Shown: positions 31,554-31,639 of the stretch, in pieces
Numbering within the stretch: position 1 is the first letter of the stretch
How the letters are laid out: each line of letters opens with the position of its first letter
From: Escherichia phage WPEC2
Reading direction: 5' to 3' (one strand)
Sequence record: PV691511.1
DNA: 64,000 bases
The notes under the pieces: model-generated
Databases searched by the model: none
Told to the model about the DNA's origin: nothing
The model's input: only the letters and a program-made list of their open reading frames with translations
Program-made: the position numbers and the translations under genes

Positions 31554-31639
31554 GATGAGTTGGCTGAATGGTTTAAGCGGCGGACTGTTAATCCGTGTTC
31601 GAAAGAACGATATAGGTTCAAATCCTATACTCATCGCCA
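31554..31639 (+). tRNA. type II tRNA with apparent GUU anticodon (Ser-like body, G73)
   Basis: acceptor GATGAGT/ACTCATC, 3-bp D stem, anticodon arm GCGGA-CTGTTAA-TCCGT, 15-nt variable hairpin, CCA. Confidence 0.5.

Follow-up and report, generated by a model that had tools for sequence, protein, structure and literature searches.

A class II-shaped tRNA-Asn(GUU) with a conserved variable arm in Escherichia phage WPEC2 and related phages

Reviews of transfer RNA (tRNA) architecture reserve the long variable arm of class II for the Ser, Leu, bacterial Tyr, and Sec isotypes only (PMC9976931 among them), and all described tRNA-Asn have a short variable loop of 4 to 5 nucleotides (nt). In Escherichia coli, Asn identity consists of the anticodon plus the discriminator, G73, and can be transferred to tRNA-Lys; Ser identity resides in the long arm and the tertiary shape, with reinforcement from the acceptor stem and no dependence on the anticodon (Giegé and Eriani 2023, PMC9976931). 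Long arms in combination with anticodons other than those of Leu, Ser, or Tyr are known from nematode nev-tRNAs (PMC3333845) and from allo-tRNAs (PMC7609411), whose bodies have Leu, Ser, or Ala identity and which are charged against their anticodons. Among phages, the tRNA-Asn of T5 (T5t17) contributes to rescue from PARIS, whose nuclease AriB targets host tRNA-Asn(GUU) (PMC12409363). Here, we describe an 86-nt tRNA gene at positions 31554 to 31639 (plus strand) of a 64,000-nt stretch of Escherichia phage WPEC2 DNA (PV691511.1; the window is this whole stretch) that carries both a GUU anticodon and a 15-nt variable region. The gene is best filed as a tRNA-Asn that deviates by its long variable loop, and it is probably a functional phage elongator tRNA, charged by the host asparaginyl-tRNA synthetase (AsnRS) and reading AAC and AAU, with a GNRA-capped hairpin of 4 base pairs (bp) in its variable region. 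We found no description of a long-arm phage tRNA-Asn in the open-access PMC and bioRxiv literature.

ARAGORN calls a tRNA-Asn (gtt) of 86 nt, including an encoded CCA, at exactly this interval, and the Rfam tRNA model (RF00005) scores it at 62 bits, its gathering score being 29, and places an insertion of 12 nt in the variable region of the alignment. The minimum-energy structure given by RNAfold is a five-helix class II cloverleaf. The 5′ strand of the acceptor stem, GATGAGT (31554 to 31560), forms seven of seven Watson-Crick pairs with ACTCATC (31629 to 31635), headed by G1-C72, A2-U71, and U3-A70, and U8 and G9 are both present. The D arm, GCT-GAATGGTTTA-AGC (31563 to 31578), has a 3-bp stem that includes C11-G24, then G13·A22, and carries G18G19 in its loop. 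G26 (31579) precedes the anticodon arm, GCGGA-CUGUUAA-UCCGU (31580 to 31596), in which G27·U43 is a wobble pair and the anticodon GUU, which reads AAC and AAU, occupies 31587 to 31589, with ARAGORN placing its first base at position 34. The 15-nt variable region (31597 to 31611), as delimited by the minimum-energy fold, covariation, and family geometry, consists of the hairpin GTTC-GAAA-GAAC (31597 to 31608) and an unpaired 3-nt tail, GAT (31609 to 31611). Class II tRNAs have a variable region of at least 10 nt with a base-paired arm, and here there are 15 nt with 4 bp and a GAAA loop. The T arm, ATAGG-TTCAAAT-CCTAT (31612 to 31628), is evident from both sequence and covariation and is followed downstream of the acceptor strand by G73 (31636) and CCA (31637 to 31639). 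All features of RF00005 members that we considered (cloverleaf, 7-bp acceptor stem, U8, G18G19, and a TTC T loop) are present. An earlier sequence-only reading of the window had described the perfect acceptor stem, the 3-bp D stem, the 15-nt variable arm, G73, and a GUU anticodon in this very arm, and direct inspection and ARAGORN bear out each of these. Isotype calls agree as well: ARAGORN returns Asn, as does tRNAscan-SE for the homologous gene in phage ASO2A (tRNA-Asn-GTT), with neither Ser nor Leu assigned by either program, and relatives whose records annotate this region have tRNA-Asn at the homologous place.

The closest cellular counterparts are E. coli asnT, asnU, asnV, and asnW, with which the window tRNA shares GUU and G73. 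Positions 26 to 43 (GGCGGACUGUUAAUCCGU, 18 nt) are identical to those of E. coli K-12 asnT in a direct alignment, and the U1-A72 pair of the host genes is found in many members of the phage family. The window tRNA differs from the host genes in its GAAA-capped 15-nt arm in place of a 5-nt loop, its 3-bp rather than 4-bp D stem, its G1-C72 and A2-U71 pairs, its encoded CCA, and its location in a phage tRNA cluster. Together, GUU and G73 make up the full published identity set of E. coli AsnRS, and an Asn-type anticodon stem-loop, the context for modification to Q34 and t6A37, is in place; the anticodon stems of E. coli serU and of the phage's own two Ser tRNAs are unrelated to it. With the bacterial class II tRNAs (Ser, Tyr, Leu, and Sec), the window tRNA shares the helical long arm, a 3-bp D stem, an enlarged D loop, and five helices, but its arm is shorter than Ser arms and nearest in geometry to that of tRNA-Tyr, and it has neither the Ser pair G2-C71 nor A73, the discriminator of Tyr and Leu. 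In mistranslating class II tRNAs (of the nev-tRNA or anticodon-shifted tRNA-Ser type), the anticodon and the identity determinants belong to different amino acids, whereas in the window tRNA Asn is specified alike by the anticodon, by G73, and by the anticodon arm. It resembles nev-tRNAs and allo-tRNAs in pairing a long arm with an anticodon foreign to Leu, Ser, and Tyr but differs in that its elements match its anticodon and, from allo-tRNAs, in its canonical 7/5 acceptor/T geometry.

The sequence-only reading had described a Ser-like body and suggested that Asn codons could be decoded with Ser. In that case, seryl-tRNA synthetase (SerRS) would recognize the tRNA, wholly or in part, by its long arm and G73, and Ser would be inserted at AAC and AAU, which we consider unlikely. 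Several facts nonetheless point in that direction and weigh against an Asn assignment. The anticodon plays no part in recognition by SerRS, which depends on the long arm and tertiary shape, with contributions from G73 and the acceptor stem, and charging by body instead of anticodon has a precedent in the class II nev-tRNAs (PMC3333845). The window tRNA combines G1-C72, C11-G24, and G73 with a long arm. It is also equal in overall length to tRNA-Ser(GCU) of the same phage, which likewise has a 15-nt variable region and a GAAA-capped 4-bp arm. Class IIb synthetases approach the tRNA from the variable-loop side, and the long arm might therefore hinder AsnRS. In addition, our scans of viral and cellular genomes fixed GGACTGTTAATCC, so conservation of the anticodon arm among the sequences recovered in this way is by construction. 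As for G73, which had been listed as a serine-type identity element, the base is indeed there, but it cannot separate Asn from Ser because both isotypes carry it.

A comparison of 89 unique long-arm GUU tRNAs with 78 Ser tRNAs from the same loci is more discriminating. The discriminator is G in 85 of the 89 GUU tRNAs, and among the Ser tRNAs it is G in 44, U in 28, and A in 6. At pair 1-72, U-A prevails in the long-arm GUU tRNAs (55/89, as in E. coli asnT), followed by G-C (31/89), compared with G-C in 71/78 Ser tRNAs. At pair 2-71, G-C (39/89) and C-G (32/89) are both common in the long-arm set, compared with G-C in 77/78 Ser tRNAs. The G2-C71 pair, which has been called "absolutely conserved" in E. 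coli tRNA-Ser, does occur in T5-like and T4-like homologues, as the Ser reading would have it. However, Table 3 of PMC9976931 names C2-G71 of E. coli tRNA-Leu among the antideterminants against SerRS, and the A2-U71 of the window tRNA, like the C2-G71 and U1-A72 pairs of its relatives, is non-Ser.

Arm geometry also separates the two groups, and how many bases of the arm are paired or unpaired has been named as a feature by which class II tRNAs are discriminated (PMC9976931). The long-arm Asn tRNAs have stems of 3 to 4 bp with 0 to 1 unpaired nt on the 5′ side and, in 66/86, a 3′ tail of 3 to 4 nt; their loops are mostly GNRA (GAAA in 40/86). Ser arms from the same genomes also mostly have GNRA loops but have stems of 4 to 8 bp (mean, 5.5), usually a single unpaired 5′ nt (41/77), and 0 to 1 unpaired 3′ nt in 58/77. 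Tyr arms have about 3 bp, 0 to 1 unpaired 5′ nt, most often 3 unpaired 3′ nt, and varied loops. Judged by these base counts, the Asn arm is of the Tyr type and not of the Ser type, and the arm of the window tRNA (0 nt, 4 bp, and a 3-nt tail) has neither the length nor the orientation of a Ser-type arm.

We further classified tRNA bodies with a position-wise naive-Bayes classifier trained on co-resident tRNAs, with the anticodon and variable arm excluded. Ser tRNAs were recognized in 73 to 74 of 78 leave-one-out tests (94 to 95%), whereas only 2 to 4 of 83 long-arm GUU tRNAs were classed as Ser. The median rank of these GUU tRNAs among 20 classes was 2 to 3 for type I Asn, a class resting on 11 training sequences, and 12 to 13 for Ser. 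For the window tRNA alone, type I Asn ranked second and Ser third to fourth, with Ser only ~4 log-units lower, so for this single gene the classifier result is suggestive, not decisive. Nearest-neighbor body identity against all co-resident isotypes was uninformative (best-match means of 0.68 to 0.72). With A2-U71, the Tyr-like arm geometry, and so few family members classed as Ser, the description of the body as Ser-like finds little support, and the complete AsnRS identity set and the host-identical anticodon arm leave the proposal of Ser insertion at Asn codons without support as well.

Codon usage bears on the same question. Asn codons (AAC and AAU) account for 5.25% of the phage's codons, so a Ser-charged GUU tRNA would be a proteome-wide mistranslator. 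The long-arm gene is also the sole phage-encoded Asn decoder in the tRNA clusters examined from these lineages of virulent phages, hundreds of which carry it, and Asn-to-Ser errors across the proteome should be selected against. Judging from these sequence determinants, the window tRNA is very probably charged with Asn, and substantial charging with Ser would be surprising. A dual identity, in which SerRS serylates a fraction of the tRNA, can be proposed because the long arm, G1-C72, C11-G24, and G73 are combined with a GUU anticodon; if true, infection by these phages would cause programmed Asn-to-Ser ambiguity, although we think this quite improbable. In the reading that we favor, the tRNA would be transcribed with the rest of its plus-strand cluster in this E. 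coli myovirus of the phAPEC8 type, charged through GUU and G73 by host AsnRS, and used at AAC and AAU, where it would supplement or replace host tRNA-Asn during infection. The GNRA-capped 4-bp hairpin gives the molecule its class II shape.

We aligned 21 distinct homologues, all with 15-nt variable regions, and counted pairs. Cloverleaf positions are paired in 99.4% of cases, compared with 70.6% in column shuffles, and none of 500 shuffles reached the observed value; sliding the 3′ partners by 1 to 3 columns lowers pairing to 33 to 46%. Double-sided changes occur at 17 of 24 cloverleaf pairs, with the qualification that pairs 29-41, 30-40, and 31-39 are uninformative, having been set by the search pattern for most of the aligned sequences. 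In the extra-arm helix, all four pairs show double-sided changes, and 98.8% of cells are paired. Covariation is seen in relatives in all five helices, including seven of seven pairs of the acceptor stem, two of three of the D stem, and the T arm. Within the genus, substitutions (in phages nepoznato and ESCO25) fall solely at unpaired positions 19, 56, and 67. The fold is maintained by selection. Since the helices covary and within-genus changes are confined to unpaired sites, the gene is not a pseudogene, and it is intact in relatives; pseudogene status in relatives would have told against the sequence-only reading. The covariation, together with conservation in relatives, likewise rules out an annotation artifact.

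The long-arm gene is widespread in phages. BLAST searches with the 86-nt gene retrieved full-length long-arm homologues annotated as tRNA-Asn in phi92 (Justusliebigvirus, 85 nt) and Epseptimavirus (T5-like, 86 nt), and further ones in Proteus Novosibvirus (85 nt) and in T4-like Klebsiella and Enterobacter phages (85 nt). A total of 547 phage records match the T5-like copy over at least 80% of the gene, and these genomes fall in Demerecviridae, Stephanstirmvirinae, and T4-like phages. In Epseptimavirus, the gene lies between tRNA-Cys and tRNA-Asp, the slot held by the type I tRNA-Asn gene in T5. A pattern scan of IMG/VR, in which an Asn anticodon arm had to precede a spacing longer than a type I tRNA allows, gave at least 120 loci; among the matches listed, ARAGORN called an 82- to 91-nt GUU tRNA in 116 of 120 loci, from which the 89 unique sequences compared above were taken, and these form several sub-lineages with different D arms.

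In cellular genomes, the same pattern was found in 38 stretches among ~185,000 prokaryotic species (one genome each), none of them in Enterobacteriaceae. Genuine cellular cases lie mostly within large tRNA arrays, in Micromonospora/Verrucosispora, Methyloprofundus, Agromyces, and Flavobacteriales, and sometimes adjoin a normal tRNA-Asn. A BLAST search of 5,426 E. coli genomes with the tRNA gave no meaningful match, only a chance 34-nt match in yobD. On this evidence, the host has no long-arm tRNA-Asn, and the long-arm form is a feature of mobile tRNA sets. In Saprospiraceae metagenome-assembled genomes, the pattern repeats two to three times, at intervals of 128 nt (L140, 5498 to 5796) or 418 nt (L130); ARAGORN calls only a nearby 75-nt tRNA-Asn on these contigs, and the repeats may be tandem degenerate or unusual Asn-like tRNAs.

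The arm may have originated as an insertion of ~10 nt into an ordinary 5-nt variable loop. The 75-nt type I tRNA-Asn of Kuttervirus Maynard aligns over its full length with the long-arm genes, the main difference being a 10-column gap in the variable region, and it too has a 3-bp D stem. By eye, the variable region of phi92, GA-ACGAAAGTTC-TAG, resembles the GATAG of Maynard with a 10-nt insertion at the canonical 45/46 site. A derivation from the neighboring tRNA-Tyr through a change of anticodon was considered but not adopted: the two window genes agree at six of seven acceptor-stem positions, and the arm geometry is Tyr-like, but body identity between long-arm Asn and Tyr tRNAs of the same locus is 0.54 and not elevated, and their arms show no relation in sequence.

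At these loci, long arms also occur in well-paired tRNAs of further isotypes that are normally class I, often in the same GNRA-capped design. As the loci were picked for carrying a long-arm tRNA-Asn, the following fractions of unique sequences are not population estimates: Ile(UAU), 10/14; Thr(UGU), 8/47; Cys, 6/42; Trp, 5/44; Glu, 4/47; and Lys, Gly, Gln, Met, and others, 1 to 3 sequences each. Examples are Cys in L049, Trp in L053, Thr in L019, Lys in L141, and Ile-UAU in L022 to L126 (viral loci, L009 to L128; bacterial arrays, L131 and L141). Ile-UAU arms are 22 to 25 nt long and have a common motif, CAGAT[TA]A. The discriminators of long-arm tRNAs fit their own isotypes (U73 in 6/6 Cys, G73 in 5/5 Trp, and U73 in 3/3 Gly), and the non-Ser discriminators of Cys, Trp, and Gly stand against a Ser reading. 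Conversely, 40 of 119 unique genes that ARAGORN calls tRNA-Leu at the viral loci have a 5-nt variable loop, the class I shape. Together, these observations argue for an arm added to tRNAs of the correct isotype and against a Ser body with a swapped anticodon. Short Leu genes also lie beside long-arm Asn genes in actinobacterial tRNA arrays (Micromonospora; L132, L133, L137, and L162), and the assignment of isotypes to class I and class II appears to be scrambled in mobile tRNA sets.

It is possible, if not what we expect, that the arm has no function and is a tolerated hairpin insertion that spread horizontally among phage tRNA clusters, its pairing being kept only to avoid the harm of 15 unpaired nt in a loop. 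Leucyl-tRNA synthetase needs no long arm and a third of the Leu genes (the 40 of 119 above) have short loops, so presence of an arm seems evolutionarily labile. Covariation speaks for maintenance of the helix, and helix conservation by itself is no proof of an adaptive arm, which also counts against our own interpretation. Against an arm devoid of function stand the recurrence of the same design in other isotypes and across sub-lineages that are deeply diverged and differ in D arm and acceptor stem, its persistence in at least 547 phage genomes, and its rarity in the cellular genomes scanned.

A role for the arm might be sought in nuclease evasion. AriB has been modeled as a dimer bridging positions 40/41 and D-loop positions 16/17 of its target. 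The variable region, from position 44 on, immediately adjoins the cleaved strand on its 3′ side. Our preferred guess, offered tentatively, is that the arm alters the outline of the tRNA such that tRNA-targeting nucleases, whether of host defenses or of the phage's own host-shutoff activity, no longer fit, with the anticodon arm kept host-identical for AsnRS and for the enzymes that make Q34 and t6A37, and that it would serve as a steric shield or "self" mark on several isotypes; we consider this more likely than dual Asn/Ser identity and slightly less likely than an arm without function. Two observations argue against such a shield. The AriB site of the host tRNA, UAAUC/C, is kept in the anticodon stem of the window tRNA. 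Also, the T5 relative Bas34, whose own tRNA-Asn may be of either arm type, still needs the type I tRNA-Asn of T5 against PARIS.

T5 itself appears to take an alternative escape route, a mutated anticodon stem. Its tRNA-Asn (L007, 6953 to 7030, minus strand) is, like the window tRNA, a phage Asn decoder in a large cluster and followed by the RNA rna3, but it is type I and 78 nt long, and its diverged anticodon stem, GCATC/GTTGA, forms only ~3 of 5 standard pairs; the window tRNA instead combines the host anticodon arm with an added arm, and the long-arm Asn genes of other Markadamsvirinae likewise have a host-identical stem. Among the neighbors of the window tRNA, the phage tRNA-Thr(UGU) (31731 to 31805, plus strand) has UAAUC/C after its anticodon, i.e., C41. 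The corresponding sequence of E. coli tRNA-Thr(UGU) reads UAAUC/A, and an A41-to-C change impairs AriB cleavage of tRNA-Lys, according to the PARIS paper. In phi92 (L002, 1026 to 1439), the genes for Lys(UUU), Tyr, long-arm Asn, and Thr(UGU) adjoin one another, a quartet that includes all three main AriB targets.

The PARIS authors considered that viral tRNAs, when overexpressed, might compete with those of the host for AriB, and one could imagine that the window gene has no role in translation at all, acting as a decoy or inhibitor of a host nuclease or tRNA-binding factor or as a processing or structural element of the operon. A conserved, non-decoding tRNA-like RNA directly downstream would fit such a role. 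Yet the canonical cloverleaf, the 7-nt anticodon loop with U33 and A37, G18G19, the TTCAAAT T loop, and the encoded CCA, together with the conserved anticodon and discriminator, are features needed for charging and decoding, and they make this explanation highly improbable.

The downstream tRNA-like RNA (31647 to 31727, plus strand), recognized from alignment and folds, lies 3′ of tRNA-Asn in Phapecoctavirus, phi92 (L002, 1286 to 1364), and T5 (L007, 6878 to 6950, minus strand), where the homologue is annotated as "rna3, putative tRNA-like RNA." It has an invariant D-like region, TGTAGAGTTAA, and covarying acceptor-like, middle, and T-like stems. An 8-nt T-like loop (NATCRAAT) is present, and the RNA is without a 7-nt anticodon loop. 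Fold z-scores range from -2.6 to -3.2. Neither ARAGORN nor Rfam calls it, and the WPEC1 record has a hypothetical protein annotated at its position.

The 631 bases surrounding the gene are 100% identical to those of Escherichia phages WPEC1, WPEC4, and WPEC6 and 97 to 99% identical to those of many Phapecoctavirus genomes (phAPEC8-like myoviruses of ~150 kb, Stephanstirmvirinae). ARAGORN, Rfam, and annotations in relatives define a cluster of at least 12 tRNAs on the plus strand (30763 to 32688): Met, Arg, Ser-UGA, Ser-GCU, Tyr, Asn, Thr, Gly, Gln, Pro, Ile, and Met. Promoter-like matches were not above chance (6 found versus 7.1 expected from shuffles); the boundaries of the transcription unit therefore rest on a terminator-like hairpin downstream of the cluster (32804 to 32822) and on the annotations of relatives. 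Immediately upstream of tRNA-Asn is a class II tRNA-Tyr(GUA) (31460 to 31547, plus strand; Rfam tRNA, 39 bits; tRNAscan-SE, tRNA-Tyr-GTA in ASO2A). It has an odd D arm and receives no ARAGORN call, and some records label the gene "tRNA-Pseudo-GTA / tRNA-OTHER." The class II tRNA-Ser(UGA) (~31149 to 31238, plus strand) is called by tRNAscan-SE in ASO2A, receives no ARAGORN call, and matches only the Rfam tRNA-Sec model, at 37 bits and below threshold.

In at least 547 phages, and in many contigs of uncultured viruses, an isotype that normally has a short variable loop thus carries a long arm that is conserved and covaries, and the textbook structural rule that a long arm means Leu, Ser, or Tyr is broken in hundreds of well-known phages. 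Annotation treats the long-arm Asn, Thr, Cys, Trp, Ile, and Lys variants all as ordinary tRNAs, and phage tRNAs may be misjudged by isotype models and identity rules that derive from cellular tRNAs. If the long-arm tRNA-Asn is confirmed, it would raise the questions of how AsnRS, EF-Tu, and the ribosome fit the arm and how SerRS is kept off, as well as why mobile tRNA sets favor the arm, the last a timely one since AriB targets host tRNA-Asn.

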